Part shown: positions 1-50,632 of the stretch, one piece after another
Position numbering within the stretch: the first letter of the stretch is position 1
Layout: each line of letters starts with the position of its first letter
Source: Patescibacteria group bacterium
Lineage (GTDB): Bacteria; Patescibacteriota; Patescibacteriia; UM-FILTER-42-10
Length of the DNA stretch: 64,000 nucleotides
Direction of reading: 5' to 3'
Assembly: GCA_041664365.1 (NCBI GenBank)
Contig: JBAYKW010000002.1
Coordinates: forward strand, 11,858-75,857
Notes under the pieces: model-generated
Database searches by the model: none
Told to the model about the DNA's origin: nothing
The model's input: the letters and a program-made list of their open reading frames with translations, nothing else
Made by a program: the position numbers and the translations under genes

Positions 1-391
1 CAGCTCTCGCCATTCCGGCCTGAGCACGGACTCACCTTCGTCGGAGGCAAAGCAAATGCCGACTTCGCAGTGGCTCGAACAAGTGATCGACAGCGTCGCG
101 CATACTGTCGCGGCGCGAGTGTTCGATCCGCACGACGTCCCGCTTCTGGGACCGATTGCCGTACAGATCCACCATGTGGACGGCAATATCGTCACCGGGA
201 CGATCTGCTCCGCCGAGGAGCACGCGCCGGACATCGAGACGACCGGATCGCGTTTCACGACCGATGCGGAGCTCAAAGAGATCCGCATGGCTGTGTACTT
301 CCTGGTGGTCCAGGGTGAATCCTTCGTCACCAAGACTCGCGATGGGTCCATCCTATGGACCATCGGTCTCCCCGTTCCTTCGGAAGACTAG
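1..391 (+). CDS. C-terminal part of a GC-rich hypothetical protein; the gene begins upstream of the window
   Basis: The frame is open from position 2 with no upstream stop and runs in-frame into the listed 56..391 ORF. The segment is about 60% GC, unlike the backbone, and is followed by a hairpin plus T-run. No recognisable motif. Confidence 0.35.
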   Translation, partial: SSRHSGLSTDSPSSEAKQMPTSQWLEQVIDSVAHTVAARVFDPHDVPLLGPIAVQIHHVDGNIVTGTICSAEEHAPDIETTGSRFTTDAELKEIRMAVYFLVVQGESFVTKTRDGSILWTIGLPVPSED

Positions 392-394
392 TCC

Positions 395-440
395 CCGCCA
401 ATACATCTTTTATGGATTGAGGCGGTTTTTTTATTCCATT
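395..440 (+). terminator. rho-independent terminator
   Basis: CCGCC...GGCGG hairpin followed by TTTTTTTATT. The same GGCGGTTTTTTTATTC tail recurs after the next GC-rich gene at about 1760-1777. Confidence 0.5.
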
Positions 441-470
441 GACATTTATAAATATTCTGGTACAATCGTT
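439..470 (+). promoter_or_regulatory. sigma70-like promoter (TTGACA, 16-17 nt spacer, TACAAT) upstream of the glgC-like gene
   Basis: ccaTTGACAtttataaatattctggTACAATcg read directly. AT-rich, backbone-like signal driving a GC-rich gene. Confidence 0.4.
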
Positions 471-516
471 GCTCGCCCGTTCACACTCACTTTGTCCAAG
501 ACACGGAGGTAATTGT

Positions 517-1755
517 ATGTACCATATGGTCGACACCAGCAAAGTAATCGGCGTTATTCTTGCCGGTGGCGAAGGGGAGCGTGCCTATCCACTCACCCGT
601 TTCCGGGCGAAGCCAGCCATTCCGATCGGAGGTGTGTTCCGTCTCGCAGATGTGATGATCTCGAACTTCCTGAACAGCGACATCCGCAAGCTATACCTGA
701 TTGTGCAGAAGCGTCCGCACTCTCTGATGGTACACCTGGAGGGGTTCGTGGATGCCGTCGCTTCGATGCGTGGGCAGTTCATCCGGTGCCTGCCACCGCC
801 CAAGGAGCAGGATCGCTTCTACGCTTCGGACCTCGATTCCCTGCGTCATCATTCGCTGATCTGGCAGAATGATGATTCTGAGCTCGTGGTTCTGGCGATG
901 GGTGATCAGGTGGCGAAGATTGATCTGCGTCAAGCGATTATCCGTTTCAAAGAGACGGATGCTGATGTGGTGATGGTCTACAACCGGGTGACAACCCAGC
1001 AAGCAGCCGGGCGACTGGGCGTGATCACCTGTGATGGTGATCTGGTGACCGGTATGGAAGAGAAGCCGGAAGTTCCGGAAGAGATTCCGGGTGATCCGGG
1101 TTACTGCCGGGGCAACGTCGCGCTGTACGTCTTCAAGAAAGACCTTTTCACTGCAATGCTGACCAAGGCCAGTCGCCGGTGGGATCCCGCTCTGACGCTG
1201 AGCAAGATCGGTGTTCCCTGGTTGGTCCGGCATGCGCGAGTTGTGACCTACGATCTGGGTGACAACACCATCGCCGGGATGCATCCCTGCGAGCGCGCGA
1301 CGTTCTTCGAAGTCGGAACGCCGGACGACTACTTCGACACGCAGATGGCGTTTTGCATGCGCGAACCGCCGTTCAACTTTTACAACCCCGCGTGGCCGGT
1401 CTGGACCGCCCTGCGCTATCCGCTCATTCCGGCCAAAGTGGACCGGGTGAAGATGGAGGAAGTACTCCTCGCTCCGAACGTCGTCGTTCAGGATAACACG
1501 GAGATCACCCGCTCGGTTGTGAGCTACGGCGCGGTCGTCGGCAGTGGTAGTGTTCTGCAGAATGTCGTCATTCTGGACGGTGCGGTCGTCGGCAAGGGTT
1601 GTCAGATTACCAATACGGTAATCGAGAAGGGGATCGTCGTGCCGGATGGTACAATAATCGGTCCTGATCGGATCCCCGACGACAAGTCCATCGTTCTTTC
1701 ACAGAAGGGGAGGCTGTTCCTTCCCAAGTTCTTCGAGTTCAAGCGGCCGTCATAA
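517..1755 (+). CDS. glgC: glucose-1-phosphate adenylyltransferase-like sugar nucleotidyltransferase (GlgC family) with a C-terminal left-handed beta-helix
   Basis: N-terminus VIGVILAGGEGERAYPLTRFRAKPAIPIGGVFRLADVMISNFLNSDIRKLYLIVQKRPHSL matches the GlgC signature (ILAGGxGxRLxPLTxxRAKPAVPFGGxYRIIDFxLSNCxNSGI...VLTQYxSxSL). The C-terminal hexapeptide-repeat region (VVGSGSVLQNVVILDGAVVGKGCQI) fits the LbH domain. GGAGGT RBS 6 nt before the ATG at 517; the TTG at 439 is less likely as start. About 60% GC. Confidence 0.65.
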   Translation: MYHMVDTSKVIGVILAGGEGERAYPLTRFRAKPAIPIGGVFRLADVMISNFLNSDIRKLYLIVQKRPHSLMVHLEGFVDAVASMRGQFIRCLPPPKEQDRFYASDLDSLRHHSLIWQNDDSELVVLAMGDQVAKIDLRQAIIRFKETDADVVMVYNRVTTQQAAGRLGVITCDGDLVTGMEEKPEVPEEIPGDPGYCRGNVALYVFKKDLFTAMLTKASRRWDPALTLSKIGVPWLVRHARVVTYDLGDNTIAGMHPCERATFFEVGTPDDYFDTQMAFCMREPPFNFYNPAWPVWTALRYPLIPAKVDRVKMEEVLLAPNVVVQDNTEITRSVVSYGAVVGSGSVLQNVVILDGAVVGKGCQITNTVIEKGIVVPDGTIIGPDRIPDDKSIVLSQKGRLFLPKFFEFKRPS

Positions 1756-1851
1756 TCAAATGGCGGTTTTTTTATTCATAAAAAATTTTATTGTGGATAA
1801 CTGTAATATTTATTAATAATTGATGATAAAAAAACTGTAATCTTAGCAGGT

Positions 1852-1880
1852 TTGACCGGTTTTTTAAAATATGGTAATAT
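1852..1880 (+). promoter_or_regulatory. sigma70-like promoter (TTGACC, 17 nt spacer, TAATAT) reading into the C/T-rich tract
   Basis: tttgaccggttttttaaaatatggtaatat read directly, with consensus-like spacing. Confidence 0.4.
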
Positions 1881-2035
1881 TGAATCCAACAAGAGCTGAG
1901 TTAGTTATTTGAAAAGAGAATATCGGGAAAGGAAACCGTGGTCTTTGGGGAGCGATCTTTGCCTTCATTGATTTGAAGTCAAAGACTGCCCCCCAACCAC
2001 CCAACCTCCTTCATGAGTCGGAACATCACATGTTC

Positions 2036-2184
2036 CACACCCCCCGCCTTCCCCCCCCACCCCCCAACCCCGCCCTCCTCACCCCTCCTGCCTTCACTCT
2101 TCCTCTCTTCCTCCTACCCTCTCCTCGCTCCTTCTCTACTCATCCCACCATCCATTCTCTTTTCACCCATCTCATTTCAGATGA
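2036..2184 (+). repeat. C/T-rich, G-depleted low-complexity tract of about 150 nt (top strand is almost only C and T, with sparse A)
   Basis: ccccccccaccccccaaccccgccctcctcacccctcctgccttcactcttcctctcttcctcctaccctctcctcgctccttctctact... read directly. It contains many CCTCC/CCTCCT motifs. Confidence 0.85.
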
Positions 2185-2266
2185 AATAGCTATTTTTTTT
2201 CAGCTCTTTTGTCGTATATGGAGAAAACAATCATTTCAGTCAGTTTAAACCCTATTAGTGCAATGC

Positions 2267-2294
2267 TTGACATCTCCTATAAATATGATATATT
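2267..2294 (+). promoter_or_regulatory. sigma70-like promoter (TTGACA, 16 nt spacer, TATATT) for the trpR-like gene
   Basis: gcTTGACAtctcctataaatatgaTATATTgacc read directly. Confidence 0.4.
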
Positions 2295-2336
2295 GACCTG
2301 TGCGCTTTGCTTTAGCCTAATAAAGCATGAATTTAA

Positions 2337-2666
2337 ATGGAAATGAACAAAAAGAACAGCAAGAAAACTGAAGAATTATACCAGGCCATGCTTTCCTTAA
2401 AAAACACCAAGGAAGCCGTGGATTTTTTTCGTGATTTGCTGACGGAAAAAGAAATTATTGAATTAGGCAACCGCTGGCGTGCCGCTCGGATGCTCAATCA
2501 GAATATTCCATACAGCAAGATCATTGAAGATACCGGACTGAGCTCAACTACAATTGCCCGGACTTCAAAATGGTTGAAAAAAAGCAAAGGTGGTTTTAGA
2601 CTTATTCTCCAAAGAATTAATACCCATCGACACAACTCTTCCGTTCCTGAGAAAGGGTTGTTTTGA
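2337..2666 (+). CDS. TrpR-like / YerC-YecD family small DNA-binding protein
   Basis: 109 aa. ELGNRWRAARMLNQNIPYSKIIEDTGLSSTTIARTSKWLK matches the Trp-repressor-like HTH fold of the YerC/YecD family. Backbone GC. Confidence 0.6.
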   Translation: MEMNKKNSKKTEELYQAMLSLKNTKEAVDFFRDLLTEKEIIELGNRWRAARMLNQNIPYSKIIEDTGLSSTTIARTSKWLKKSKGGFRLILQRINTHRHNSSVPEKGLF

Positions 2667-2687
2667 TATAGCAGAAAATATATAAAG

Positions 2688-2724
2688 CCAGCCCCTTCTC
2701 ACGGAGAGAAGGGGCTTTTGATTT
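2688..2724 (+). terminator. rho-independent terminator
   Basis: AGCCCCTTCTC-acgg-AGAGAAGGGGCT followed by TTTTGATTT. Confidence 0.6.
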
Positions 2725-2811
2725 ATCGAAAGCCTTCAGCTTGAGAGACTTTTGATTTCCCAAAAGTTAAAGCTTAAGCTGAATTGTTCATTCACAGTTC
2801 GGAGGTTTGTC

Positions 2812-3888
2812 ATGAAGACGTACCGACCCTGCGCCGGCGCGATTCCCGAGTCGATTGATACCCGCTACCAGGAGGCGCTGCAGACCAAAGGACTTCGGTA
2901 TGGCATTATCGAAGTCACCACCCGTTGTCAGTGTGCCTGTCCGGGGTGCTATATGGTGCGCCGCAATTTCTTGAACAAAAAGGAGATGTCCCTGTCAGAT
3001 GCAATCCGGATTCTGGATTTGTGCCGTGATTACCGCGGCGCGGAACTGGAAACGATGGACCTCTTAGGCGGGGAGCCGCTGTTGTGGCCGCACCTGCAGG
3101 AGTTCATTGAGGAGCTGCTGCGCCGCGGGATTCTGCCTTGGGTTTTCACCAACATGCTGGCGATCACGCCCGAGCTCGCGCGGTGGTTGCATGAGCACAA
3201 GGTGCATGTTACCGGCAAGCTGAACATCGATCCTTCCGATCCCGCGCAGTATCCGCTGCAGGCGGAGATGCTGGGTCGGGGGATGAATGTGGTGCGGCAA
3301 CTGCTTTCCGCGATCCGGATTTTTCAGGCGGCCGGGTATGAGGACCCACTGTTCCGTTTGCAGAACCTGATCCGCAAACAGAACCTGGAATTTGTGCCGG
3401 GTTACTACAGTTGGTGCCTTGCACAGAAGATCGGCACGGATCTGGAACTGATGGGTTCCGGCGAGCCGATCGGTCCTGACTACTGGCGGATTGCCCCTAA
3501 CCCTAAACAGCTGGCGGGTATGATCCGCAAGATCCAGGCGGTCCGCAAGGAATTCGGCCTGGCGGAAGCCGAGGTACTGATGCCGCACGTGTTCGGCTCC
3601 TGTCCTTTCTACGACAAGGGTCTTTACTTCGCGGCGGACGGGCACATCCGCGCCTGCTCCAACTCTACGGTCCAGCTTTCACAAACCGCCGATCCGGATC
3701 CGATCCGGAAAGCCTATGAGTCACCGCTGATCTGTAGCCGTCTAATGCTTTCGCAGAGTGCGGTTGGGGAACCCTGTGGCAGCTGCAGTAAGTGGGACAA
3801 GTGCCGTGGCGGATGCCGGGCGACGGTGGAAGGTACCGGCGATCCTTTCGGCGGGTACCCGCTATGCCCGGTGCCTTTTCTGGACTGA
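2812..3888 (+). CDS. radical SAM enzyme with a C-terminal SPASM domain (peptide- or protein-modifying maturase family)
   Basis: CX3CX2C cluster motif TTRCQCACPGCY near the N-terminus. C-terminal CGSCSKWDKCRGGC is a Cx2Cx5Cx3C SPASM signature, and there are additional upstream Cys. GGAGG RBS 7 nt before the ATG at 2812. About 60% GC. Confidence 0.7.
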   Translation: MKTYRPCAGAIPESIDTRYQEALQTKGLRYGIIEVTTRCQCACPGCYMVRRNFLNKKEMSLSDAIRILDLCRDYRGAELETMDLLGGEPLLWPHLQEFIEELLRRGILPWVFTNMLAITPELARWLHEHKVHVTGKLNIDPSDPAQYPLQAEMLGRGMNVVRQLLSAIRIFQAAGYEDPLFRLQNLIRKQNLEFVPGYYSWCLAQKIGTDLELMGSGEPIGPDYWRIAPNPKQLAGMIRKIQAVRKEFGLAEAEVLMPHVFGSCPFYDKGLYFAADGHIRACSNSTVQLSQTADPDPIRKAYESPLICSRLMLSQSAVGEPCGSCSKWDKCRGGCRATVEGTGDPFGGYPLCPVPFLD

Positions 3889-3959
3889 CCTTGTGACAAA
3901 AGGTTGGGGCGGAGATTAATTTCTTCGCTCCAACCGCTTTATTTTTTAAATTTAAAGAT

Positions 3960-4415
3960 ATGAGAAAAGATATTCTAAAAATTGCCAATATTAAATTCAA
4001 AGAACTGTCAAAAAAGTACGACGGATTTATCAATGTGGTTATTGATGATTGGCGGGGTTTTCGTTTTGTTTTTGACACGGAAGATGTCCGCAAATGTAAA
4101 AACGACTGCCAGAATTGCCCGTTATTTAAATTACTAAAAGATGAAAAATCAGGATTATTCTCCACAGGATTATACCGGGCAACTAAAGAAGATAAATTAC
4201 TTTTCGGTCCGCAAAATTTTTTAAACTGTAAAACCATTATGCAATATCAAACATGCTATTTGAATTTTTTACAGCAATGCCGGTCGGAGGCTGAAATTAA
4301 GCAGGAATTAGCATTGGTTAAATCAATGAAATTAATTTATTCCAAAGGAAATATTAAAAAAACGGAAGATTTGTTTAAAAAAGAAATATTGTCCAAATAT
4401 CTTGATTTTTTATAG
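3960..4415 (+). CDS. hypothetical 151-aa protein carrying a CX3CX2C motif (CKNDCQNC); possible truncated radical-SAM-like remnant
   Basis: Backbone-type, Lys-rich composition. The motif VRKCKNDCQNCPLF is read directly. Too short for a full radical SAM core. Confidence 0.4.
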   Translation: MRKDILKIANIKFKELSKKYDGFINVVIDDWRGFRFVFDTEDVRKCKNDCQNCPLFKLLKDEKSGLFSTGLYRATKEDKLLFGPQNFLNCKTIMQYQTCYLNFLQQCRSEAEIKQELALVKSMKLIYSKGNIKKTEDLFKKEILSKYLDFL

Positions 4416-4477
4416 GGTATTTGTTAAGGTAAATGACCGTTTTAGCTGTTCACTTTAGGCACGAGGAGGTATACATC

Positions 4478-5836
4478 GTGATCATCAAGCGTTACGCACT
4501 GCTTCCGATGCGAGAACTTTGGCTCCGGGAAGAGAGCAAGTTCGAGCACTGGCTGGATGTTGAGCTAGCGGTTCTGCGCGCACGCGAACATTTGGGGATG
4601 GCACCTAAAGGTGCGTATATGAGCGTCCTCAAGCATGCTGCGTTCACTGTGGACAGGATCGCGGAGATCGAGGCGGAAGTGGATCACGACCTGATCGCTT
4701 TCGTCACCAACGTCCGCGAGTCGCTCGAAGCGGCCGGTATCGGCCATTTGTGTTCGGAAATCCATAAGGAGATTACGAGCTACGACGTGGAGGATCCGGC
4801 GCTGATTCTGATGCTCCGCAAGGCGGTCCATCTGGACATCAACGCGCTGAGATCGCTGGAACAGTCCTTACGGAGGAAGGCGCAGGAACACCAGTGGACC
4901 TGGATGATCATGCGCACGCACGGACAGTTCGCCGAACCTTCCACCTTCGGCCATCTTCTGCTGGTGTTTGCCGAAGAAATCCGGCGATGCATCGTCAAGC
5001 TCGAGACTCCGATGAACACTGATCTGTCCGAGGGGAAGATCTCCGGCGCGGTCGGCAGTTTCGCCGGCATTAGGCCAGCCGTGGAGCAGATTGCGCTGGA
5101 AGTGCTGGGTTTGATGCCTGCCAAGGCGGAAACCCAGATCCTACAGCGTGACCGTCACGCTGCGCTACTCTGCACGTTGGCAGTCTGCGGAGGAGTGATC
5201 GAGCAGATCGCAAAGACCTTCTGGGTGATGATGCGCAGCGAGGTGCGCGAACTCCGTGAACCGCGCAAGCCGAAGCAGAAGGGTTCCTCGGCGATGCCGG
5301 GCAAGCGCAATCCGATCCTGACGGAACGGCTCATGGGCATGTCCCGTCTGCTCCGTGCGGATGCAATGTGTGCGCTGGAGAACATCGCCACTTTCGAGGG
5401 ACGGGAAATCTCCCAGTCCAGTGTGGAACGCCACATCTTCGCGCGGTCAACGACGCTCGTTCACTACATGGCCATTAAGCTGGCCGGAATGGTGGACAGT
5501 CTCGAAGTTTTTCCGGAGCAGATGCTTCATAACCTGAAGGAGGAGTCACTCGGAGTGTGGGCCGGACAGCGGGTCCGTCATGCACTGGAGGAGGCGGGGA
5601 CTCACCACGAAGTGGCCTACCGCTACATTCAGGCGTGTTCGTTCCAGGCCGAGGCCGAACGGACGCATCTGCGAGACGTACTGCGCAGAACGTTGATTTG
5701 GGATGTTGTGGAAGACAGCGATGACGATCGTAGCGCCGAGGATCGGCTGGGTCGGAATGGTCTCAGGGCATGCTTCGACCACGAAGCCTATGCCACGGCC
5801 GGCATCGAACACATCTTCTCCCGCCAGACGGCGTAG
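4478..5836 (+). CDS. purB: adenylosuccinate lyase-like enzyme (fumarate-lyase superfamily, PurB-type)
   Basis: N-terminus VIIKRYALLPMRELWLREESKFEHWLDVELAVLRA parallels the PurB N-terminus (MIERYxxPEMxxIW..E.KFxxWL.VE). Fumarate-lyase signature GSSAMPGKRNP. GAGGAGG RBS before the GTG at 4478; the ATG at 4433 is an alternative start. About 60% GC. Confidence 0.65.
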   Translation: MIIKRYALLPMRELWLREESKFEHWLDVELAVLRAREHLGMAPKGAYMSVLKHAAFTVDRIAEIEAEVDHDLIAFVTNVRESLEAAGIGHLCSEIHKEITSYDVEDPALILMLRKAVHLDINALRSLEQSLRRKAQEHQWTWMIMRTHGQFAEPSTFGHLLLVFAEEIRRCIVKLETPMNTDLSEGKISGAVGSFAGIRPAVEQIALEVLGLMPAKAETQILQRDRHAALLCTLAVCGGVIEQIAKTFWVMMRSEVRELREPRKPKQKGSSAMPGKRNPILTERLMGMSRLLRADAMCALENIATFEGREISQSSVERHIFARSTTLVHYMAIKLAGMVDSLEVFPEQMLHNLKEESLGVWAGQRVRHALEEAGTHHEVAYRYIQACSFQAEAERTHLRDVLRRTLIWDVVEDSDDDRSAEDRLGRNGLRACFDHEAYATAGIEHIFSRQTA

Positions 5837-5904
5837 TTTGCACATTTCTTGGGTTCCGGGATCTGATCACAGATCTTAATGGGCCCTTTTTTATTTGGTT
5901 GAGT

Positions 5905-5990
5905 TGAGGGGATAGGGTTTTCCGCCTGAGGCGGATCAGCCTTGGGCTGAAGGGGATAGGGGTTAGGGGATAGGGTTTGGAAACTAGCAA
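5905..5990 (+). repeat. G-rich telomere-like repeat block (GGGGATAGGG / TTAGGGG units) with an internal CCGCC-tga-GGCGG hairpin
   Basis: tgaggggatagggttttccgcctgaggcggatcagccttgggctgaaggggataggggttaggggatagggtttgg read directly. A related block lies at 30273-30317. Confidence 0.8.
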
Positions 5991-6189
5991 TTGGTAATCT
6001 CTAATTCTAAACTCTTTATTCTTAAAATAGGCTAAAGCTTTTTTCTACAACCAAACGTGTAACGTCGCTTATTTTCAGCCGATAAATATAAACGAGTATT
6101 GTATCGTTCCGTGTTTTATTTTATTAGGATTTTTTGGCTAATTATAAGTAGACTTTTTAATCTTCAAGAAAGGTGTATAATATAAATCC

Positions 6190-7707
6190 ATGAAAAAAAT
6201 TGTTTTCATTATTCTAATTTTAAATTTTCTGATTACACCGCTCTTAGCCAGTGCGGCTGATCCCTGGGTGGCGACCAATGACCGGATCGGACTGAATGTC
6301 CACTGGGCATTGGGTGGTTTTGGCAAGGATGATTTATACCAACTGCGTTTGCATCAGAGCAGAACAACCTGGGTGCGAGAGCATTTTTATACTGAAGTGT
6401 TTATGGGGGAAAATCCTGAGGCTTGGTTTGAGCGTTACGACCTAATTCTGGAAAAATATCATCGGGAAGGGATAAAAGTTCTGGGCATGCTGGCATACAA
6501 TGTTAAACACGGGGATTTTTACCAGCCCGACCTTGCAGTGTGGGAAGAATTTGTCCGGACAGTTGTGAACCGCTACAAAGACAGGGTAGATGCGTGGGAA
6601 ATCTGGAATGAACCAGATTCGCCGACTTACCTTACCCCGCATAACCCGGAAACCTACGGACCAATTTTAGAAACTGCTTATCGAACCATCAAAAATATTG
6701 ACACCGAAGAGTTAGTCTTGACCGGCGGTTTGAGTTGGTTCAACTGGTATTTTGCCGAAAGACTTTTTAAAGATTATGGAGACTACTTTGATCGTTTAGC
6801 AGTTCATGGCTATTACTGCGAAAACCGGGATAATTCGAAAATGATGTCCGATCTGGCAGCGCTCAGAAGCGTGGTGGGTAAATACCGGCCGGGTGAGCAG
6901 ATTTGGATTACTGAGCTTGGCTGTTCCACCGGATCAATCGGAATCACTGAACAGGATCAGGTTGAATATTTGGATAATGCCACTAAAGAATTATTAGAAA
7001 CCACTTTTGTTGATAAAATTTTTCTTTATAATATCCGTAACCGGGAAATTGGTGATTTATATGAAGACAGCTTCGGACTTTTAGGTTTGGATATGCAGCC
7101 GAGGCTTGCCTGGTCGTGGTATCGCTCGCTTCCTTTCGGCCCGTATGATCAGAAAAGGATCTCTTTCAAACGGGAACAGAAGCGCGCTACCGAATTAAAA
7201 ACTGTTTTGGAAAAATTTTTTGGTAAAGATAAAATTCCGGTTACACAAGAAAACTGGAACAAGTTGGTTAATGCACATATTTATGGCGGTTATCCGGTGA
7301 TTGCCATAGTCCAGTCATTGCGTTTTGGTGGAAAAACGGTTCATCCGGAAATAAGTTATGACGATTGGAAAAAAAGTAAAACTTATAAAAAATATATCAA
7401 AAAGGATTTAGTGAACGGACGATTTGTCTTTGCATATGGTATGGCACGATTGCCAATCGAAACCGAACAGCAGAAGGCAACAGAATTGAAACAAAAACTT
7501 CAGACTCAATTTGGTTTGGAGAATTTAAGAATTAATGACGCGAACTGGGTAAAACTGTTTAACGCTTATGCTTACGGCGGGTATCCGGTGGAAGCAATCG
7601 CGCGTGCAGTGATTTATGGCGGTAAGACAGTGCACACAACTATTCCATGGAAATTCTGGAAAGAACGGTCTGAGTATTTGGAATATATGCAAAAACCGGT
7701 AAAATAA
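6190..7707 (+). CDS. secreted clan GH-A glycoside hydrolase-like protein with two tandem C-terminal repeats of about 100 aa
   Basis: Signal peptide MKKIVFIILILNFLITPLLASAA. WEIWNEPD (acid/base Glu) and WITELGCS (nucleophile Glu) motifs fit GH5/GH39-type enzymes. Repeated TELK..F.G..KIPVTQENWNKLVNAHIYGGYPV modules at the C-terminus. Confidence 0.55.
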   Translation: MKKIVFIILILNFLITPLLASAADPWVATNDRIGLNVHWALGGFGKDDLYQLRLHQSRTTWVREHFYTEVFMGENPEAWFERYDLILEKYHREGIKVLGMLAYNVKHGDFYQPDLAVWEEFVRTVVNRYKDRVDAWEIWNEPDSPTYLTPHNPETYGPILETAYRTIKNIDTEELVLTGGLSWFNWYFAERLFKDYGDYFDRLAVHGYYCENRDNSKMMSDLAALRSVVGKYRPGEQIWITELGCSTGSIGITEQDQVEYLDNATKELLETTFVDKIFLYNIRNREIGDLYEDSFGLLGLDMQPRLAWSWYRSLPFGPYDQKRISFKREQKRATELKTVLEKFFGKDKIPVTQENWNKLVNAHIYGGYPVIAIVQSLRFGGKTVHPEISYDDWKKSKTYKKYIKKDLVNGRFVFAYGMARLPIETEQQKATELKQKLQTQFGLENLRINDANWVKLFNAYAYGGYPVEAIARAVIYGGKTVHTTIPWKFWKERSEYLEYMQKPVK

Positions 7708-7720
7708 CGCAATAAAAAAA

Positions 7721-7741
7721 GGGGGTTTTTAAACTACCCCC
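7721..7741. terminator. hairpin terminator candidate (GGGGGT...ACCCCC), with a T-run on the minus-strand side
   Basis: aaaaaaagggggtttttaaactaccccc. On the minus strand the hairpin is followed by TTTTTTT, so it terminates the 7734..8060 minus gene and may act bidirectionally. Confidence 0.45.
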
Positions 7742-8060
7742 GTGTGCTTTTCCCGTTCCAGTCACGCTGCCATTCGTGGCGCTTGTCTTCCGGAATGTCA
7801 TCCGGCGGTGTGATGATTTCCAGCTGTTCCACCGGGTGGTGCAGGAAGGTGTCGTGGCCATCCGCAATGATGTGGCAGAGATGCTTGGTGGACCCGGCAC
7901 AGCCGAGGTCAAACAGCCTGCCGTCAAGCAGACGGACCATATGACGCGTCGAACCGCATCCTTCATGATCCCAAACACCGGGATTCCTCGGAACGATCGC
8001 ATTCAGCGGACTTCCGGGTTTGATCAGAATCCCGCAGACTTTGATTTTCAACTGAGACAT
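7734..8060 (-). CDS. GC-rich small hypothetical protein (about 108 aa) with an internal duplicated GCGSTRH / GCAGSTKH motif
   Basis: GGGAGGG RBS before the ATG (MSQLKIKV...). About 60% GC inside an AT-rich context. No family assigned. Confidence 0.45.
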   Translation of the reverse strand: MSQLKIKVCGILIKPGSPLNAIVPRNPGVWDHEGCGSTRHMVRLLDGRLFDLGCAGSTKHLCHIIADGHDTFLHHPVEQLEIITPPDDIPEDKRHEWQRDWNGKSTRG

Positions 8061-24517: not shown

Positions 24518-25867
24518 ATGCCTATCGACACGATTTGTGGTCTCCAACGGGGAGACGAAGGCAAGGGCGCGATCGTTGATCGCAAACTGGCCTCAGGTAA
24601 GTACACCTGGAATGTCCGTTTCCAGGGAGGTGCCAACGCTGGCCACACTGTGAAGGCTGGTGGAAAGAAGTTGATTCTGCACCAAATCCCTTCTGGCGTC
24701 ATGCACGAGCGGGTCAGGCTGGGCCTCGGTCAGGGCATGATTATCGATCCGTTCGGTCTCCGCGATGAAGTCGAACAGCTTCGGGTTATGGACATCGATG
24801 CGACGGCGCGACTGTGTGTTTCTTCCGGTGCCAAGATCGTCTGTCCGTGGGACAAGCTCCTGGACGGCGCGATCGATCGCGTGCGAGCCAAGGCTATGGG
24901 CATGCAGGTCGCGGAGGGCGGCGGCGTCGGTACTACCAACCGCGGGATCGGTCCCGGCTATGCTAATGCGGTGTCACGGGACGGCATCACGGTGGCGCAG
25001 CTGGTCCGGCCGAACGTGCTCTTCAATCGGATCAAAGTCGTGGTCCCGGTGATCAACTGCATGATCCGCGGTGTGCGCCAGGAGCTGGATTTATCGGAAG
25101 AGCAGCTACCGGAGTACACTGTTTCCGGTGCGTTTGAACAGCTCGCTCCGATCGGCGAATGGATGTCGCTGATTGCGTATCCGCTGCATGAACTGCTGCG
25201 GGTTGCACTTATGGAAGGTGAATTCTTACTCGCAGAGGGCGGACAGGGTTATTTCCTGTCCAACGACTGCACTGTGAGCTATCCCAGCTGCACTTCCTCG
25301 ATCACGACGGCCAACGCCGTTTTCTCGGGGCTCGGACTCGAACTGCGAAGAAGCTGGATCGGTAGCACGATCGGCGTGGTCAAGGCGTACCAGACGGCAG
25401 TGGGTAATCATCCGATGCCCACCTACATCGGCAACGAGTACCAGGAGCGTATCCAGCGGATCGGTGGCGAAATCGGCGCGTCGACCGGCCGGATACGTGA
25501 CTGCTGCTGGCTGAACGGTTTGGAGCTTCGCGAGGCTGCTCAGTTTTGCGACGTGATCTACGTCACCAAGCTGGATGTGCTGTCCGGGATTCCGCTGATT
25601 CCGATCGCAACCGCCCTGCATCCTGACAACCATGCTCCGAATCATCCAGTGCTGACCGATCTCCCGCAAACCTGGGAGGAGTACATGCTCTGCCAGCCGA
25701 TCTACGGCATCAACGTGACCGGCTGGAACGAGGACATCTCCGGCATTCGCAGGATTGCCGACTTGCCGAGCAGTGCGCAGGAATACTTGGCTACGATTGC
25801 CAAGATTGCGTCCAGGATGGTCATCTGCGTCGGTGTCGGTCCTGAACGCGAGCAGTTCTGCGTTTAG
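24518..25867 (+). CDS. purA: adenylosuccinate synthetase family protein (PurA-like; substrate specificity not resolved)
   Basis: GLQRGDEGKGAIVD (P-loop, catalytic Asp), RFQGGANAGHTV (catalytic His retained, first His replaced by Ala), GTTNRGIGPGY, GASTGRIRDCCWLN, TKLDVL. GGGGAGGG RBS before the ATG at 24518. About 62% GC. Confidence 0.7.
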   Translation: MPIDTICGLQRGDEGKGAIVDRKLASGKYTWNVRFQGGANAGHTVKAGGKKLILHQIPSGVMHERVRLGLGQGMIIDPFGLRDEVEQLRVMDIDATARLCVSSGAKIVCPWDKLLDGAIDRVRAKAMGMQVAEGGGVGTTNRGIGPGYANAVSRDGITVAQLVRPNVLFNRIKVVVPVINCMIRGVRQELDLSEEQLPEYTVSGAFEQLAPIGEWMSLIAYPLHELLRVALMEGEFLLAEGGQGYFLSNDCTVSYPSCTSSITTANAVFSGLGLELRRSWIGSTIGVVKAYQTAVGNHPMPTYIGNEYQERIQRIGGEIGASTGRIRDCCWLNGLELREAAQFCDVIYVTKLDVLSGIPLIPIATALHPDNHAPNHPVLTDLPQTWEEYMLCQPIYGINVTGWNEDISGIRRIADLPSSAQEYLATIAKIASRMVICVGVGPEREQFCV

Positions 25868-26783: not shown

Positions 26784-29714
26784 ATGCCAGAAGAAACACA
26801 AACAATTACACAAACAAAGGTTCAGGGAAACGAAACAAGTATTAAAGATTCTTCTCTTGATGAGAGCGAAGAAATACAAATAGAAAAAAAGAAAGGTTTA
26901 ACTTTTGAACGTTTCTTCTCTCATTCAGGGAAGCATCCCTTTGACGATGTTAAATGGGAAAGGCGCGATGCTACAATTACTGATCCGAAAGGAAATATAA
27001 TCTTCGAACAGAAGAATGTAGAGTTTCCTGTTTTTTGGACTCAGAATGCAACCAATATTTGTGTTTCCAAATATTTCTATGGCGACGAAAAAAAAGGTGA
27101 AAGAGAAAACAGTGTAAAACAGCTTGTTGATCGTGTTTCACGAACCATGACCGATTGGGGAAAGAAAGACGGATATTTCGCCTCGGAAGAGGATGGAGAA
27201 AATTTTTATAACGAACTAACCTTCCTGTTAGTAAATCAGTATGCCGCCTTCAACAGCCCGGTGTGGTTTAACTGTGGTGTAAATCGTTATGATACAGGAT
27301 CCGGAGCCGGCAGATACTATTGGAATAAAGAACAGGGGAAAGTATTATTGGCCGAGGATGACTACACTTATCCGCAATGCTCCGCCTGTTTTATTAATTC
27401 CGTGGAAGATTCTATGGATTCTATTTTGAGTTTATCCAAAACAGAAGGAATGCTGTTCAAGTTCGGATCCGGCACCGGTACTAATCTTTCAACTATCAGA
27501 TCTTCAAGGGAAAGGTTGAGTGGCGGAGGGCAGTCGTCCGGTCCAGTATCATTTATGAAGGGTTTTGATGCGTTTGCGGGTGTTATTAAATCCGGTGGAA
27601 AAACCCGCCGGGCCGCTAAAATGGTGATTCTAAACGCTGATCATCCGGATATCGTTGATTTTATTGATTCCAAGGCCAATGAAGAAAAGAAAGCCTGGGC
27701 TTTGATTGACGCGGGATACAATGGTGCAATTGACGGCGAAGCATATACTTCTATTTTCTTCCAAAATGCCAATAACAGTGTCCGAGTAACCGATAAGTTT
27801 ATGGAAGCAGCGATGGAAAACAAGAAATGGAAAACGCACGCGGTGACAACCGGTGAAGAAATGGAAACGTATAATGCCCGGGATCTGATGCAAAAGATTG
27901 CCGATGCAACATATATTTGCGGTGATCCGGGTCTGCAGTTTGATACAACGATCAATGATTGGCACACTTGTCCGAATACCGACCGGATTAACGCATCCAA
28001 TCCTTGCAGTGAATACATGTTCCTGAACGATTCTGCCTGCAATCTGGCCTCCCTTAATTTAATGAAATTTACAAATGAACAGGGAGTATTTGACATTGAT
28101 TCTTATTTGCATGCCGTGGACGTAATGATTACTGCGCAAGAAATTGTAGTTGATCATGCCAGCTATCCAACGGCAGAGATTACAAAGAATAGTCATCTGT
28201 TCAGACCGCTAGGGCTTGGGTATGCTAATCTCGGAGCACTCTTAATGTCGCTAGGTCTTGCGTACGACAGCGACGAAGGAAGAGCCTGGGGCGGGTTAGT
28301 TACTTCAATCATGACCGGGCGCGCTTACCGGCAGTCAACTTTGATTGCTAATGTCGTGGGTACATTCGCGGAATATGAAACGAACCGCAGCCCGTTCCTG
28401 CGCGTTATGAGAAAACACAGAGACGCTGTTTATGATATCAGAGATTTTAATAAACAATCAGCGGAATTGAAAATAACGGCCGGGGAAATCTGGGATGAGG
28501 TAGTGGAAATGGGACAGCAATACGGATTCCGCAATGCTCAAACAACAGTACTTGCTCCGACCGGAACAATCGGGTTCCTAATGGACTGTGATACTACCGG
28601 AATTGAGCCCGACATTGCTTTGGTCAAATATAAGAAGTTGGTCGGTGGTGGCTATATGAAGATCGTAAATTCAACCGTGCCATTGGCGCTTAGACATTTG
28701 GGATACACTAATGAGCAGATCAATGCAATTATTGACTACATTGACAGTAACGACACGATTGAAGGCGCGCCTTCTTTGGATGAAGATCATCTGTCTGTAT
28801 TTGACTGCGCATTCAGACCAAGTAATGGCGTAAGATCGATTCATCATATGGGTCATATTAAAATGATGTCCGCGGCTCAACCTTTCCTGTCCGGTGCAAT
28901 TTCTAAAACAGTTAATATGCCGGAAGAATCCAAGGTGGAAGATATCATGGACGCATATATTCAAGCCTGGAAGCTGGGCCTGAAAGCAGTTGCGGTTTAT
29001 CGTGACGGTTCCAAGCGCACGCAGCCGCTAAATACTGGTAAGGAAGACGGCAATAAAAAGGAAAAGACAAACGGTGATCAGGTGATCCGTCTGAAACTGC
29101 CTGATGAAAGACAGTCAATTACCCATAAATTTGAAATAGCCGGACATGAAGGATATATCACCGCGGGACTCTACGAAACAGGTGAAGTTGGGGAAATCTT
29201 TATCACCATGTCCAAAGAGGGTAGTACACTCTCCGGAATTATGGACGCATTTGCTACTTCCATATCTCTTAACCTGCAATACGGCGTGCCTTTGAAAGTT
29301 CTGGTCAGTAAGTTCACCCATTCCCGTTTTGAACCGGCAGGATTTACCTCCAACAAACAGATCCCGATGGTTAAATCAATTATGGATTATATTTTCCGCT
29401 GGCTTGCGATCAAATTCCTGAGACCGGAAGAAGCGGCACTGGTTCATAATGCTTTGTTGATTGGCAATGACCAGAAGGAGATGGAAGTAAAAAATACTGA
29501 AGTTAGAAAAGAGAAGGAAAAAGAAACCGTTGCAAAACCCGGTGCAGGACAGGAACCACTACCTTCATTCAAAGAAAAGTCCGAACAACAGGAACTGTTA
29601 ACATTCCAGAATTCTGAGGATGCCCCATTCTGCGGGGAGTGTGGATCAATCATGGTGCGCAGCGGATCCTGCTATAAATGCATAGAATGCGGATCTACCA
29701 GCGGGTGCTCTTAA
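26784..29714 (+). CDS. nrdJ: class II (adenosylcobalamin-dependent) ribonucleotide reductase with a C-terminal zinc ribbon
   Basis: 976-aa RNR fold with an N-terminal ATP-cone-like region and the active-site Cys/Asn/Glu region (NPCSEYMFLNDSACNLASLNL). C-terminal CGECGS...CYKCIECGS. Context: nrdR upstream, cobalamin adenosyltransferase downstream. Confidence 0.75.
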   Translation: MPEETQTITQTKVQGNETSIKDSSLDESEEIQIEKKKGLTFERFFSHSGKHPFDDVKWERRDATITDPKGNIIFEQKNVEFPVFWTQNATNICVSKYFYGDEKKGERENSVKQLVDRVSRTMTDWGKKDGYFASEEDGENFYNELTFLLVNQYAAFNSPVWFNCGVNRYDTGSGAGRYYWNKEQGKVLLAEDDYTYPQCSACFINSVEDSMDSILSLSKTEGMLFKFGSGTGTNLSTIRSSRERLSGGGQSSGPVSFMKGFDAFAGVIKSGGKTRRAAKMVILNADHPDIVDFIDSKANEEKKAWALIDAGYNGAIDGEAYTSIFFQNANNSVRVTDKFMEAAMENKKWKTHAVTTGEEMETYNARDLMQKIADATYICGDPGLQFDTTINDWHTCPNTDRINASNPCSEYMFLNDSACNLASLNLMKFTNEQGVFDIDSYLHAVDVMITAQEIVVDHASYPTAEITKNSHLFRPLGLGYANLGALLMSLGLAYDSDEGRAWGGLVTSIMTGRAYRQSTLIANVVGTFAEYETNRSPFLRVMRKHRDAVYDIRDFNKQSAELKITAGEIWDEVVEMGQQYGFRNAQTTVLAPTGTIGFLMDCDTTGIEPDIALVKYKKLVGGGYMKIVNSTVPLALRHLGYTNEQINAIIDYIDSNDTIEGAPSLDEDHLSVFDCAFRPSNGVRSIHHMGHIKMMSAAQPFLSGAISKTVNMPEESKVEDIMDAYIQAWKLGLKAVAVYRDGSKRTQPLNTGKEDGNKKEKTNGDQVIRLKLPDERQSITHKFEIAGHEGYITAGLYETGEVGEIFITMSKEGSTLSGIMDAFATSISLNLQYGVPLKVLVSKFTHSRFEPAGFTSNKQIPMVKSIMDYIFRWLAIKFLRPEEAALVHNALLIGNDQKEMEVKNTEVRKEKEKETVAKPGAGQEPLPSFKEKSEQQELLTFQNSEDAPFCGECGSIMVRSGSCYKCIECGSTSGCS

Positions 29715-30317: not shown

Positions 30318-30329
30318 TTGAAAACATAA

Positions 30330-31021: not shown

Positions 31022-31022
31022 T

Positions 31023-50627: not shown

Positions 50628-50632
50628 CTTTT

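Follow-up and report, generated by a model that had tools for sequence, protein, structure and literature searches.

The window analyzed here is the whole 64,000-nucleotide stretch of a Patescibacteria (CPR) contig; our locus L001 is the same contig, reaching 7.2 kb upstream of the window. At its left end, four GC-rich genes (56 to 60% GC), namely sm111, a glgC-like gene, a radical SAM (rSAM) gene, and purB, are each led by GGAGG 6 to 8 nt 5' of the start codon and interspersed with segments of 30 to 42% GC, the backbone of this CPR genome being at ~42% (Table 1). The original prediction described genes of roughly 60% GC with GGAGG sites alternating with AT-rich segments, and 300-nt windows agree: GC is 0.55 to 0.61 over 1-1650, 0.37 to 0.43 over 2100-2850, 0.57 to 0.61 over both 2850-3900 and 4500-5850, and 0.32 to 0.34 over 3900-4500, with a whole-window backbone of ~0.42. 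Its identifications of the GlgC-like nucleotidyltransferase, the TrpR-family regulator, the rSAM enzyme, and purB are confirmed, and the PurA-like gene that it placed elsewhere was found; its partial ORF at 1-391, however, is actually a complete 111-aa ORF.

Table 1. Features of the window
Feature	Position	Strand	Details
sm111	56-391	+	Complete 111-aa ORF; GC3 0.76; GGAGG at 43-47
Left direct repeat GGCGGTTTTTTTATTC	421-436	+	Exact 16 nt; 3' half of sm111 terminator plus T-run; left edge of glgC-like insertion
glgC-like promoter-like site, sigma-70	439-466	+	Near-consensus TTGACA-16-TACAAT, TG-extended, 11/12
glgC-like	517-1755	+	GlgC-like sugar-1-phosphate nucleotidyltransferase; GC3 0.70; GGAGG at 505-509
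Right direct repeat	1762-1777	+	16 nt; second flank of glgC-like insertion
Candidate structured non-coding RNA	1884-2215	+	Promoter-like site at 1852-1880
Module promoter-like site, sigma-70	2267-2294	+	TTGACA-16-TATATT, TG-extended, 11/12
HisR-type palindromic operator CTTTAGCCTAATAAAG	2310-2325	+	11 nt 5' of repressor start codon
TrpR-like repressor	2337-2666	+	HisR/YerC family; 109 aa; GC3 0.45 (backbone-like); no SD
Terminator/attenuator hairpin	2690-2716	+	AGCCCCTTCTC-ACGGA-GAGAAGGGGCT, then T-run
Radical SAM enzyme	2812-3888	+	358 aa; GC3 0.72; GGAGG at 2801-2805
Intercistronic hairpin rSAM-orf151	3902-3935	+	14 bp
orf151	3960-4415	+	151 aa, basic, pI 9.2; GC3 0.31; no SD
purB (adenylosuccinate lyase)	4478-5836	+	GTG start; GC3 0.73; GAGGAGG at 4463-4469
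Small GC-rich SD-led ORF	7734-8057	-	GGGAGG 5' of ATG; called as 108-aa gene in L001
PurA-like adenylosuccinate synthase	24518-25867	+	GC3 0.72; GGGAGG 5 nt 5' of ATG
GC-rich SD-led ORF	31854-33647	+	AAGGAG; no function assigned
GC-rich SD-led ORF	33665-34768	+	GGAGG, GTG start; no function assigned

The alternation is a synonymous effect. GC3 is 0.70 to 0.76 in sm111, glgC-like, rSAM, and purB, 0.45 in the TrpR-like gene, 0.31 in orf151, and 0.34 to 0.50 in some 40 backbone genes. All GC-rich genes of this clade are led by Shine-Dalgarno (SD) sites and its backbone genes are essentially SD-less; the sites are kept on the orthologues in L003, L033, and L035.

Two Cys-rich 108-aa paralogues (cys108) lie before sm111, upstream of the window; sm111 itself has orthologues in L035 (75%), L042 (71%), and L003 (52%) and matched no family. 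The glgC-like gene is a 1341-bp single-gene insertion between 16-nt direct repeats (repeat family D10, spaced 1341 nt); it is missing at this site in L003, L033, and L042, the last having a single repeat copy after sm111. Scoring 262 bits, below its family cut-off of 458, it is a long-branch orphan with relatives at 87%, 76%, and then at most 46%. PurB passes TIGR00928 (332.7 versus a cut-off of 326.2) and adjoins the rSAM gene and its partners only in this small clade, and the PurA-like protein, whose true start is the ATG at 24518, reaches 313 bits, below a cut-off of 402.

The rSAM protein carries the core motif CX3CX2C (C39, C43, C46) and a full seven-Cys SPASM domain (C264-X12-G277-X4-C282, C322-X2-C325-X5-C331-X3-C335, C352); by its sequence, it has all ten cluster-ligand cysteines of an rSAM enzyme with two auxiliary clusters. 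These motif positions are kept in 27 of 30 sequences, with one position altered in each of L012, L028, and L029 and a frameshift in L031, and C71 and C202 are conserved in nearly all loci. PF04055 is passed (38.8 versus 29.5), no NCBIfam subfamily exceeds 41 bits, and the SPASM region of PqqE aligns with E = 4.6e-4. Foldseek neighbors of the structural model, whose SPASM region is of low confidence (pLDDT <50), are SuiB, anSME, SkfB, PqqE, BlsE, and CteB, at TM ~0.6 and 13 to 18% identity. Judged by these profiles, the enzyme is of the SPASM type, as predicted, and falls outside every named subfamily. The view that no credible precursor lies nearby also stands: no precursor peptide gene was found at the locus, the rSAM-orf151 spacers (38 to 130 nt) are filled with hairpins, and the ORFs within 1756-2336 are broken by 1- to 2-nt indels in L035. 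No RRE (recognition) domain was detected in the enzyme, including the part that precedes its core. Since mean identity across CPR classes is 61% for the enzyme (45% for orf151) and its surroundings are housekeeping genes, its substrate would be a conserved cellular one rather than a variable RiPP.

The regulator passes TIGR02531 (68 bits versus 42.2), and its best solved relative is structure 3G1C (E. eligens HisR, E = 1.2e-16), which assigns it by sequence similarity to the HisR/YerC subfamily. Its operator, within the repressor 5' UTR, is the only match in the 64-kb window, where 0.08 was expected, and agrees with the published HisR consensus cacTTTAnnnnnnTAAAgtg (PMC9413887). The operator recurs at the equivalent position in 15 other loci, in tandem in 5 of these, and six loci have a second, TGTTAATACA-like operator type; thus, DNA specificity has diverged. 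By analogy, the repressor ligand would be amino-acid-like and possibly histidine; to our knowledge, however, CPR bacteria lack the histidine pathway, leaving nothing there to regulate. The promoter-like sites at 439 and 2267 are the strongest in 1-6200, a search that found none upstream of rSAM or purB, and most related loci have a TTGACA...TATACT-type site where the one at 2267 lies here. The hairpin at 2690-2716 has a canonical terminator shape, and its stem sequence is partly conserved from one CPR class to another, with variants that are compensatory. A strong hairpin also fills the rSAM-orf151 spacer in all 26 loci having both genes, its sequence not being conserved.

In 5'-to-3' order, the core of the region holds a promoter-like site, the HisR-type operator, the gene of the HisR/YerC-like repressor, a hairpin, the SD-led radical SAM/SPASM gene, a second hairpin, and the SD-less orf151, in what appears to be a single autoregulated transcription unit. 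Co-transcription through the hairpin at 2690-2716 is suggested solely by the lack of a recognizable internal promoter, and the two hairpins may be attenuators, through which each of the three genes would be expressed at its own level.

Mapping these genes across 29 GTDB loci by tblastn, we found the TrpR-like, rSAM, and orf151 genes in that order in most of them, with other neighbors varying. When all ORFs of the 29 loci were clustered, only three families were present in more than five loci: rSAM (26), orf151 (26), and the TrpR-like gene (23). L014 and L029 have room for orf151 but none adjoining rSAM. Other neighbors include ArgRS, IF3, L20, SmpB, EF-G, YchF, and RibD, with no conserved peptidase or transporter among them, and in close locus pairs the nearest neighbors are congruent. 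The TrpR-like gene and orf151, formerly taken as backbone, are true partners of the enzyme, and we lean toward a three-gene module of many CPR lineages as the core of the region.

The original prediction instead treated the GC-rich GlgC-like, rSAM, PurB, and PurA-like genes as a jointly acquired foreign set, forming one unnamed pathway around rSAM. Such a set would account for their common composition (GC3 0.70 to 0.73) and strong SD sites, and the glgC-like gene is indeed a repeat-flanked insertion. Moreover, bias-corrected synonymous similarity to L035 is 0.28 to 0.49 in the cys108-to-purB block versus 0.09 to 0.17 in its flanks, so close relatives exchange this block as a whole. GC-rich genes do travel together among very close relatives, but their association is conserved only in a small clade: no glgC or purA match was found near rSAM in the 29 loci, and purB only in L003. 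The exchanged block also includes AT-rich genes, the glgC-like gene is absent from the site in three loci, and the PurA-like gene lies 20 kb away. PurA and PurB convert IMP to AMP, an ordinary role that speaks against a special pathway. The rSAM gene itself is not foreign: in most of the 29 loci the same pair of AT-rich genes flanks it, and it has diverged from relatives to the same extent as backbone genes. We therefore regard a foreign pathway as very unlikely, although the gene set indeed matches no nameable pathway. Synteny already largely refutes this explanation.

Another explanation of the composition is that GC-rich donors using SD sites passed on the GC-rich SD-led genes long ago by horizontal transfer and that amelioration is incomplete, the SD sites and codon usage of these genes being donor relics. 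It has a real, though lesser, chance of being correct. GC3 is uniform (~0.70 to 0.73) across four unrelated enzymes, codon usage resembles that of a ~60% GC genome, the glgC-like gene is demonstrably inserted, and within their families glgC-like, purA-like, and purB sit on long branches or count as borderline. Backbone synonymous similarity to L003 is ~0.2 rather than 0, so the clade is perhaps young enough for partial amelioration, and rSAM GC3 has fallen to 0.48 in L003 and L033. However, the SD sites are conserved on orthologues, no glgC-like donor was detected among 5.8 billion proteins, and rSAM occupies its ancestral CPR position, flanked by two genes of native composition. Composition is in fact gene specific across CPR classes, with rSAM usually GC3-richer than its own genome (mean +0.11, maximum +0.46, in most loci), the co-inherited orf151 GC3-poorer (mean -0.09, maximum +0.02), and the TrpR-like gene neutral; a homogeneous donor therefore cannot explain the pattern, and GC-richness of rSAM recurs in its orthologues. 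We think it somewhat probable that cys108, sm111, glgC-like, and purB form with rSAM one clade-peculiar gene class, defined by high GC3 and a strong SD site, and that these four have no functional tie to the module.

The module spreads patchily across CPR, in at least 29 species genomes. This distribution, the adjoining HTH regulator, and weak matches of residues 35-129 to pVip models (33.5 bits) and viperin structures would suit a viperin-type antiphage defense, with the radical SAM enzyme making a chain-terminating nucleotide. However, the matches are confined to the generic rSAM core, and, unlike viperins, the enzyme contains a complete SPASM domain. Very high sequence conservation, housekeeping neighbors instead of defense islands, and the absence of any PADLOC model matching orf151 or the regulator make this role highly improbable.

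The third gene, orf151, encodes a genuine protein, folded and conserved, with no homology to rSAM. The predicted fold is confident (pLDDT 93.5) and looks novel, the CX3CX2C motif CKNDCQNC is present as predicted (residues 46-53), and D29, W31, R32, D39, C46, C50, C53, D78, F82, G83, N89, C90, K91, and Y96 are invariant in alignment A3. The 59 close homologues are named, if at all, only as hypothetical, and the family has just 104 representatives among 1.84 billion clusters. A displaced native rSAM homologue or fragment, as once proposed, was rejected (hhalign probability 0.3%, different fold). The alternative proposal of a small Fe-S partner remains plausible as a role, but HMM searches found no similarity to Fe-S families. 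P0300 joins an N-terminal rSAM part to orf151 close to a TrpR-like gene; this fusion could be a deletion artifact.

Peptides or proteins are the usual substrates of SPASM enzymes, and orf151 might itself be the substrate, cross-linked or otherwise modified on the Cys trio or close to it, so that the module matures one specific protein, as with QhpC for QhpD or sulfatases for anSME. The best structural neighbors all modify peptides or proteins (SuiB, anSME, SkfB, PqqE, CteB, ChlB), orf151 lies directly 3' of rSAM in 26 loci, its Cys, Asp, Lys, and Tyr residues include invariant ones, and no alternative candidate substrate is encoded nearby. Nevertheless, this is an unlikely role for what is predicted to be a globular 151-aa protein rather than a leader-core peptide, next to an enzyme whose core no recognition domain precedes and which is far better conserved (61% versus 45%) than maturases serving one small protein usually are. 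In L024, C46, C50, and C53 have all been lost although the rSAM remains intact, and L025 and L028 have another residue in place of C90. Distant orf151-like proteins, sharing 20 to 30% of positions, have no adjoining rSAM in the five contexts examined, two of which end at a contig end, and may have another role; one relative (P0366) is fused to C_GCAxxG_C_C, a putative redox domain. Because of these rSAM-free relatives, the redox-domain fusion, and the lineage without the Cys trio but with an intact enzyme, orf151 would be an accessory partner of rSAM, as a metal- or Fe-S-binding or substrate-presenting subunit, rather than its dedicated substrate. Our best reading, held with modest confidence, is thus a radical-SAM system that regulates itself, does not make a RiPP, and has orf151 as an accessory partner.

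Upstream of the module, the candidate non-coding RNA (MFE -81.1, z = -8.3) matches no Rfam family. It is predicted to fold into a closing helix and two hairpins, with a G-free pyrimidine tract of ~170 nt containing four CCTCC motifs left unpaired. It shares 89% nucleotide identity with L035, with indels that break ORFs, and two further copies of it were found.

Comparing the region with one genome per GTDB species, we obtained 29 loci and found, by tblastn with all region proteins, that the order TrpR-like repressor, radical SAM/SPASM enzyme (rSAM), 151-aa ORF (orf151) is kept in nearly all of them. The named lineages among these loci are Gracilibacteria, Peribacteria, Peregrinibacteria, Buchananbacteria, Kerfeldbacteria, Gribaldobacteria, Magasanikbacteria and Saccharibacteria. 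When all ORFs were clustered, the widely shared families were rSAM (26 loci), orf151 (26 loci) and the TrpR-like gene (23 loci), the next family reaching at most 5 loci. GlgC-like and PurA-like genes were never found in the 29 loci by tblastn, and PurB was found in the closest relative only. Synteny therefore largely refutes the original prediction of a foreign pathway set of GC-rich genes around rSAM: outside one small clade these genes do not travel together, and only the triad is widely shared. The conserved unit, or module, is the triad of TrpR-like gene, rSAM and orf151, not the GC-rich gene set. In close pairs of loci all three genes have the same nearest neighbor, so the triad is inherited together. 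Its surroundings are housekeeping regions and not an island, with ArgRS, IF3, L20, SmpB, EF-G, YchF, RibD, a glycosyltransferase and an O-antigen-ligase-like protein as lineage-specific neighbors.

The window is a piece of a Patescibacteria (CPR) genome, and NCBI gives identical proteins the label 'Patescibacteria group bacterium'. Homologues of rSAM at E <= 0.001 number more than 200; identity is 59-88% in the best 120, and the organism, where named by the source, is nearly always a CPR lineage; the family is apparently confined to CPR. The identical protein occurs on ENA contig ERZ27249449 k141_468525 (locus L001, which reaches 7.2 kb upstream of the window and whose coordinates are window + 7189) and on a Logan contig. 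CPR bacteria account for a large part of the diversity of bacteria and possess very few genes for biosynthesis. The enzyme system described here, kept at about 60-88% identity in Gracilibacteria, Peribacteria, Peregrinibacteria, Saccharibacteria and several Parcubacteria lineages, probably does something indispensable to these organisms, because it is conserved, embedded among translation genes and without a named family. Found widely in CPR, the module is wholly uncharacterized. Six module loci (L004, L014, L017, L018, L023 and L031) are titled 'uncultured Gammaproteobacteria bacterium' (TPA_asm MAGs), labels that may be wrong because the module and its neighbors there look like those of CPR loci.

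Features of the window and of related loci (window coordinates unless a locus is named)
Feature	Coordinates	Strand	Remarks
sm111	56-391		complete 111-aa ORF
16-nt direct repeats	421-436, 1762-1777		exact; bound the glgC-like unit
glgC-like gene	517-1755
promoter-like site of candidate RNA	1852-1880
candidate structured RNA	1884-2215	+
sigma-70 promoter-like site	2267-2294		11/12, TG-extended
HisR-type operator, predicted	2309-2326		GCTTTAGCCTAATAAAGC
core of predicted operator	2310-2325		CTTTAGCCTAATAAAG
TrpR-like repressor gene	2337-2666		start codon 2337
terminator-shaped hairpin	2690-2716		after repressor gene; stem CCCCTTCTC/GAGAAGGGG
rSAM gene	2812-3888
orf151	3960-4415
purB	4478-5836
window-specific insertion	5900-6170		GGGGATAGGG x3 + one-mismatch copy (5908, 5952, 5959, 5966)
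SD-led GC-rich gene	7734-8057	-
purA-like gene	24518-25867
nrdJ	26784-29714		B12-dependent ribonucleotide reductase
GGGGATAGGG, further exact copy	30285
AdoCbl riboswitch	30324-30487	+	57.3 bits vs gathering score 50
genes downstream of riboswitch	30557-31598
SD-led GC-rich ORFs	from 31854, from 33665
tRNA genes	50293-50367, 50555-50628	+	four-base anticodon (tctc) call beside tRNA-Arg(tct)
1946-aa ORF	57773-63613	+	GC2 0.50
GC-rich ORFans	L001 822-1316, 1677-2072	-	5' of window
GC-rich ORFans	L001 2249-2852, 3061-3696	+	5' of window
cys108a, cys108b	L001 6462-6788, 6851-7177		just 5' of window
second rSAM/SPASM paralogue	L006 2974-4074
P0300	L038 1023-1940		305 aa

By motif and predicted fold, rSAM is assigned to the radical SAM superfamily and its SPASM subgroup, upholding the class first read from the sequence, and it falls outside all named subfamilies. 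It scores 38.8 bits with the radical SAM Pfam family PF04055, over a cut-off of 29.5. Positions of the ten-Cys motifs were taken from an alignment of 24 family members and a 30-sequence alignment. CX3CX2C (C39, C43, C46) is kept in 30/30 aligned sequences, and the SPASM signature CX9-15GX4C, CX2CX5CX3C, C (C264-X12-G277-X4-C282, C322-X2-C325-X5-C331-X3-C335, C352) in 28/30, features shared with the group of anSME, PqqE, MftC, SuiB, CteB, SkfB and QhpD. The Pfam SPASM family PF13186 is carried by the homologue P0099 and by a second, divergent radical SAM/SPASM paralogue directly upstream of the triad's TrpR-like gene at L006; the window protein has no match to it at E <= 0.01, so its SPASM membership rests on motif and fold. 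A PDB profile search returned the PqqE SPASM segment only (E = 4.6e-4). The AlphaFold model (pTM 0.79) has beta/alpha alternation over residues 30-213 (pLDDT 83-98) and low confidence in the cluster-binding loops, as expected without metal. Compared with the PDB, it gave 93 matches at E <= 0.001, and each of the 50 listed is a radical SAM enzyme. Its predicted partial TIM barrel can be superposed with those of SuiB, anSME, SkfB, PqqE, BlsE, CteB and ChlB at a TM of about 0.6.

In the HMM check against subfamilies, no NCBIfam model scored above 41 bits, with cut-offs of 225-725. The RiPP-maturase models gave 41 vs 265 (MftC, the best), 32.1 vs 381 (PqqE), 29.4 vs 340 (PapB) and 22.2 vs 625 (StsB). 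The enzyme is a new SPASM subfamily. Unlike the solved SPASM enzymes, with which identity is 13-18%, it comes with neither an RRE/PqqD-like domain nor a precursor peptide, a peptidase or a transporter. The stretch ahead of the core has only about 30 residues, none of rSAM, orf151 and the regulator has a PqqD-type Pfam match, and the loci share no peptidase or transporter gene near rSAM. Also unlike known SPASM enzymes, it has two extra cysteines, C71 and C202, kept in nearly all loci, and its conservation is unusually high (mean 61% identity). This conservation and the context make it resemble a housekeeping enzyme more than a RiPP maturase.

The lack of a precursor gene, remarked on from the outset, was borne out across the loci. 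ORF clustering gave no small ORF family shared among them as a precursor candidate, and the spacers on the two sides of rSAM, in most loci 64-200 nt and 38-130 nt long, are filled by hairpins. The ORFs within 1756-2336 are disrupted by indels in L035, a syntenic relative; those of 45-91 aa in 1864-2346 were rejected as peptide genes on the alignment of this spacer to L035 with 1-2-nt indels. A hidden peptide gene in 3889-3959 was likewise rejected, the stretch being a hairpin. The long rSAM homologues P0091, P0101, P0032 and P0062 proved to have N-terminal extensions only and are not rSAM-orf151 fusions. Among PADLOC defense models, pVip matched the rSAM core only (residues 35-129, 33.5 bits), with no match for orf151 or the regulator, and PHROGs gave generic rSAM-core matches only.

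With 59 close homologues, the orf151 reading frame is a genuine gene. Across 1.84 billion clusters, an exhaustive profile search recovered only 104 representatives, of which about 23 are close and about 60 make up a more distant subfamily of 180-220 aa. The protein is basic (pI about 9), and D29, W31, R32, D39, C46, C50, C53, D78, F82, G83, N89, C90, K91 and Y96 are invariant. Judged by profile searches, it appears to belong to no described family: Pfam and NCBIfam gave no match for the window protein, including radical SAM and Fer4 families, and no consistent match for 42 homologues, and a PDB profile search gave nothing below E = 0.027. Pfam DUF5651, on which we found nothing in the literature, was rejected as its family, matching 11/42 homologues weakly (best E = 0.005) and neither the window protein nor 10 re-scanned members. 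The minimal nucleotidyltransferases of the Pol-beta fold (MNT antitoxins, kanamycin nucleotidyltransferase) were set beside orf151 as a comparison system. The orf151 family would be a small Cys-protein with a new predicted fold.

Two roles had been proposed for orf151. A displaced native homologue of rSAM is contradicted by hhalign, which gives a probability of 0.3% against the rSAM family and aligns only a 12-residue Cys motif. A small Fe-S partner stands as a possible role, without the Fe-S family HMM similarity that was looked for in Pfam and NCBIfam. With moderate confidence, we favor from sequence comparison an accessory or partner role over that of a dedicated substrate, because distant relatives occur without rSAM, because orf151 takes part in two fusions and because its cysteines can be lost. 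The distant subfamily (P0366; L036, L037, L039, L040, L041) is found without an rSAM next to it, in contexts that look archaeal; one member adjoins threonine synthase, and SAM-dependent methyltransferase genes lie at or near 3/5 of these contexts. In P0366 (JGI 3300072015), an orf151-like domain is fused to a C_GCAxxG_C_C putative redox domain. P0300 joins the first 134 residues of such an rSAM (CX3CX2C, GGEP, PWLFTN) to a complete orf151 domain; seen on a single contig, close to a divergent TrpR-like gene, it may be either a true fusion or the result of a deletion. The Cys trio is missing from orf151 in L024, and C90 in L025 and L028, with all rSAM motifs intact at these loci.

The regulator is a member of the HisR/YerC family, which makes histidine its candidate effector. 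It passes the TIGR02531 (YerC/YecD) cut-off (68 bits vs 42.2), and its best PDB match is 3G1C (E = 1.2e-16), followed by 3KOR and 3FRW. Ashniev et al. treat 3G1C, from Eubacterium eligens, as HisR, a histidine-responsive regulator whose gene in B. subtilis is yerC, and describe its operator in Firmicutes and Actinobacteria as a 20-bp palindrome with the consensus cacTTTAnnnnnnTAAAgtg (PMC9413887). The sequence ahead of the TrpR-like gene fits this consensus; its core occurs once in 64 kb (0.08 expected) and sits between the promoter-like site and the start codon. A HisR-type motif has an equal position in 15 other loci, as tandem pairs in 5/15. This CTTTA-N6-TAAAG arrangement ahead of the regulator's own gene resembles the reported autoregulation of HisR. 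Unlike known HisR regulons, which comprise histidine biosynthesis and uptake, the only visible target here is the radical SAM operon. Organisms of this kind are generally held to lack amino-acid biosynthesis. A search with the operator for further regulon members gave a sole non-cognate match, rejected because it lies inside a coding region (L023: 2089). Also unlike HisR, six module loci (L012, L013, L016, L020, L025 and L026) have before the TrpR-like gene a different palindrome (TGTTAATACA...TTAATACA type) in place of the HisR-type operator, suggesting that operator specificity switched within the module; the TGTTAATACA-type palindrome is closer to the proteobacterial TrpR/HisR motif. With its operator and repressor and a candidate ligand, HisR-type control provides an experimental handle on the module.

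The terminator-shaped hairpin behind the repressor gene is semi-conserved across classes, with compensatory variants, and is followed by a short leader ending in GGAGG ahead of rSAM. Transcription from the repressor promoter would read through this hairpin into rSAM, because no promoter-like site was found between the two and the distance from hairpin to rSAM start is ~45 nt in some loci. A second strong hairpin separates rSAM from orf151 in 26/26 loci (MFE -15 to -42 kcal/mol, z -2.7 to -9.3); a T-rich tail follows it in roughly half of them.

Pfam and NCBIfam upheld the gene identities first named in the region, and the claimed alternation of GC-rich and AT-rich genes is real, both in 300-nt windows and in GC3 per gene. 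The ORF taken as partial at 1-391 exists and is complete (sm111). The window backbone is ~42% GC; GC per 300-nt window is 0.55-0.61 in the GC-rich genes, 0.32-0.34 in orf151 and 0.37-0.43 in the TrpR-like gene and spacers. The alternation is located at synonymous sites: GC3 is 0.70-0.76 in sm111, the glgC-like gene, rSAM and purB, 0.45 in the TrpR-like gene, 0.31 in orf151 and 0.34-0.50 in about 40 backbone genes. The elevation recurs in syntenic relatives, with rSAM at 0.47, 0.48, 0.68 and 0.68 in L003, L033, L032 and L035 and purB at 0.66, 0.65 and 0.71 in three relative genomes, vs a background of 0.25-0.42. Within this small clade, GC3 values of 0.5-0.7 could mean that genes transferred long ago from a donor of very high GC have not fully ameliorated, which is conceivable because backbone synonymous similarity to L003 is ~0.2 and not zero. 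However, the family-wide pattern of rSAM and orf151 is the stronger argument, and it favors a gene-specific equilibrium. Over 26 CPR loci, the GC3 offset of a gene from the locus median averages +0.11 for rSAM (range -0.20 to +0.46), -0.09 for orf151 (-0.25 to +0.02) and 0.00 for the TrpR-like gene (-0.09 to +0.08). Thus, adjoining co-inherited genes hold opposite synonymous compositions over very long times, which cannot be explained by one homogeneous donor. Independent replacement of rSAM by horizontal gene transfer (HGT) as the source of its GC is unsupported as well, since the nearest neighbors of the three genes agree in close pairs and the divergence of rSAM from L003 equals that of the backbone. 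Atypical GC together with a 'foreign-looking' ribosome-binding site can therefore be stable and gene-specific without recent transfer, which bears on HGT detection in reduced genomes.

Exchange on a shorter scale was examined with a bias-corrected synonymous similarity; it replaced raw same-codon fractions, which are misleading because biased genes share codons by chance. Compared with L035, the block from the paralogous cys108 pair to purB gives 0.28-0.49 and its flanks 0.09-0.17; compared with L003, the block gives 0.02-0.14 (trpR 0.21) and the flanks 0.18-0.22 downstream and ~0 upstream. The history of this block, AT-rich genes included, differs from that of its flanks, so the block was exchanged as a unit among close relatives. 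The glgC-like gene was inserted in a separate event, as a 1341-bp unit of promoter, SD (Shine-Dalgarno) sequence and ORF inside direct repeats. The unit occurs in L035 and L043 but not in L042, L003 or L033, and deviant composition, direct repeats and presence/absence variation coincide in this gene only. No convincing cassette-type repeats were found around the purA-like island or the island at 31.7-34.8 kb, and neither L001 nor the window region showed an integrase or transposase. The glgC-like protein has only two close relatives (87% and 76% identical, next <=46%), is <=35% identical to ordinary GlgC and scores below the GlgC equivalog cut-offs (NF002023, 262 vs 458; TIGR02091, 221.5 vs 424.9); on these scores, it is best called a putative GlgC-like sugar-phosphate nucleotidyltransferase, not GlgC proper. 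PurB passes TIGR00928 (adenylosuccinate lyase) marginally (332.7 vs 326.2). The purA-like product stays under the PurA cut-offs (NF002223, 313 vs 402; TIGR00184, 259 vs 395.6) and is much nearer PurA than PurZ (68 bits).

Several smaller features accompany this region. The tandem paralogous cys108a and cys108b genes encode GC-rich 108-aa proteins with two CxxC-type pairs each, resembling double zinc ribbons, and have no family matches; the pair is kept in L035, L042, L033 and L003, always followed by sm111. More GC-rich ORFans (GC3 0.61-0.87) lie farther upstream in L001, where a 164-aa ORFan is 96% identical to its L035 orthologue with a corrected synonymous similarity of 0.73, far over its neighbors, which suggests a very recent exchange. 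Between purB and a glycosyl-hydrolase-like gene, the window has a specific insertion of ~270 nt, absent in L035, L003 and L033. Its repeat recurs just 5' of the AdoCbl riboswitch, which lies downstream of nrdJ.

Composition is further linked to translation signals. With curated starts, all GC-rich genes (sm111, the glgC-like, rSAM, purB and purA-like genes, and the SD-led genes and ORFs listed in the table) have GGAGG, GGGAGG or AAGGAG 5-10 nt before the start, and ~40 backbone genes have no recognizable SD, with nrdJ among few exceptions. No SD precedes orf151 in the window, L003, L033 or L035, and nearly all other rSAM-orf151 spacers among those listed are likewise without one. An automated Fisher test of the link between GC3 and SD, biased against the effect, gave p = 1.8e-4 in the window, 3.3e-3 in L035, 0.021 in L003 and 2.3e-3 in L033. 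In Bacteroidetes, translation is SD-independent, and rare SD-led genes such as rpsU are selectively translated. Like this type, the region combines an SD-less backbone with a small minority of genes with a strong, conserved GGAGG; unlike it, the SD-led genes here also form a class by composition (GC3 +0.3), made up of metabolic enzymes and ORFans. GC-rich 5' regions may be unfit for structure-poor SD-independent initiation and hence would need an SD. The 16S anti-SD motif was undetected in about half of Parcubacteria by Tsurumaki et al. (PMC9297842), who give no description of a GC-rich SD-led minority class. The two-class pattern was unexpected and offers a clue to translation initiation in CPR lineages reported to be without an anti-SD.

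The spacer between the glgC-like and TrpR-like genes contains a candidate structured non-coding RNA, preceded by a promoter-like site of its own. It is 89% identical to L035, vs about 82% for flanking coding sequence, and has a fold z-score of -8.3, with a long closing helix and a ~170-nt G-free pyrimidine tract whose four CCTCC motifs are predicted to be unpaired. Two more copies occur (L042, L043), one without an adjoining glgC, and it is absent in L003 and L033. No Rfam family matches it, a permissive Rfam scan of 1700-2850 giving chance miRNA matches only. In a speculative scheme, which we consider improbable, there would be two translation regimes within one genome of this CPR clade, an AT-rich SD-less bulk and a GC-rich GGAGG-led translational regulon, with this RNA as an anti-SD mimic titrating the mRNAs of the latter. 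The proposed regulon, with the radical SAM enzyme, PurA-like, PurB, GlgC-like and several ORFans, may be heritable and separately controlled.

Elsewhere in the window, ARAGORN called a tRNA with a four-base anticodon beside tRNA-Arg(tct) (Rfam tRNA 52.6 bits), and a tRNA-Pro with anticodon AGG, unusual for bacteria. The 1946-aa ORF stands out by its GC2, vs about 0.35 in other genes.
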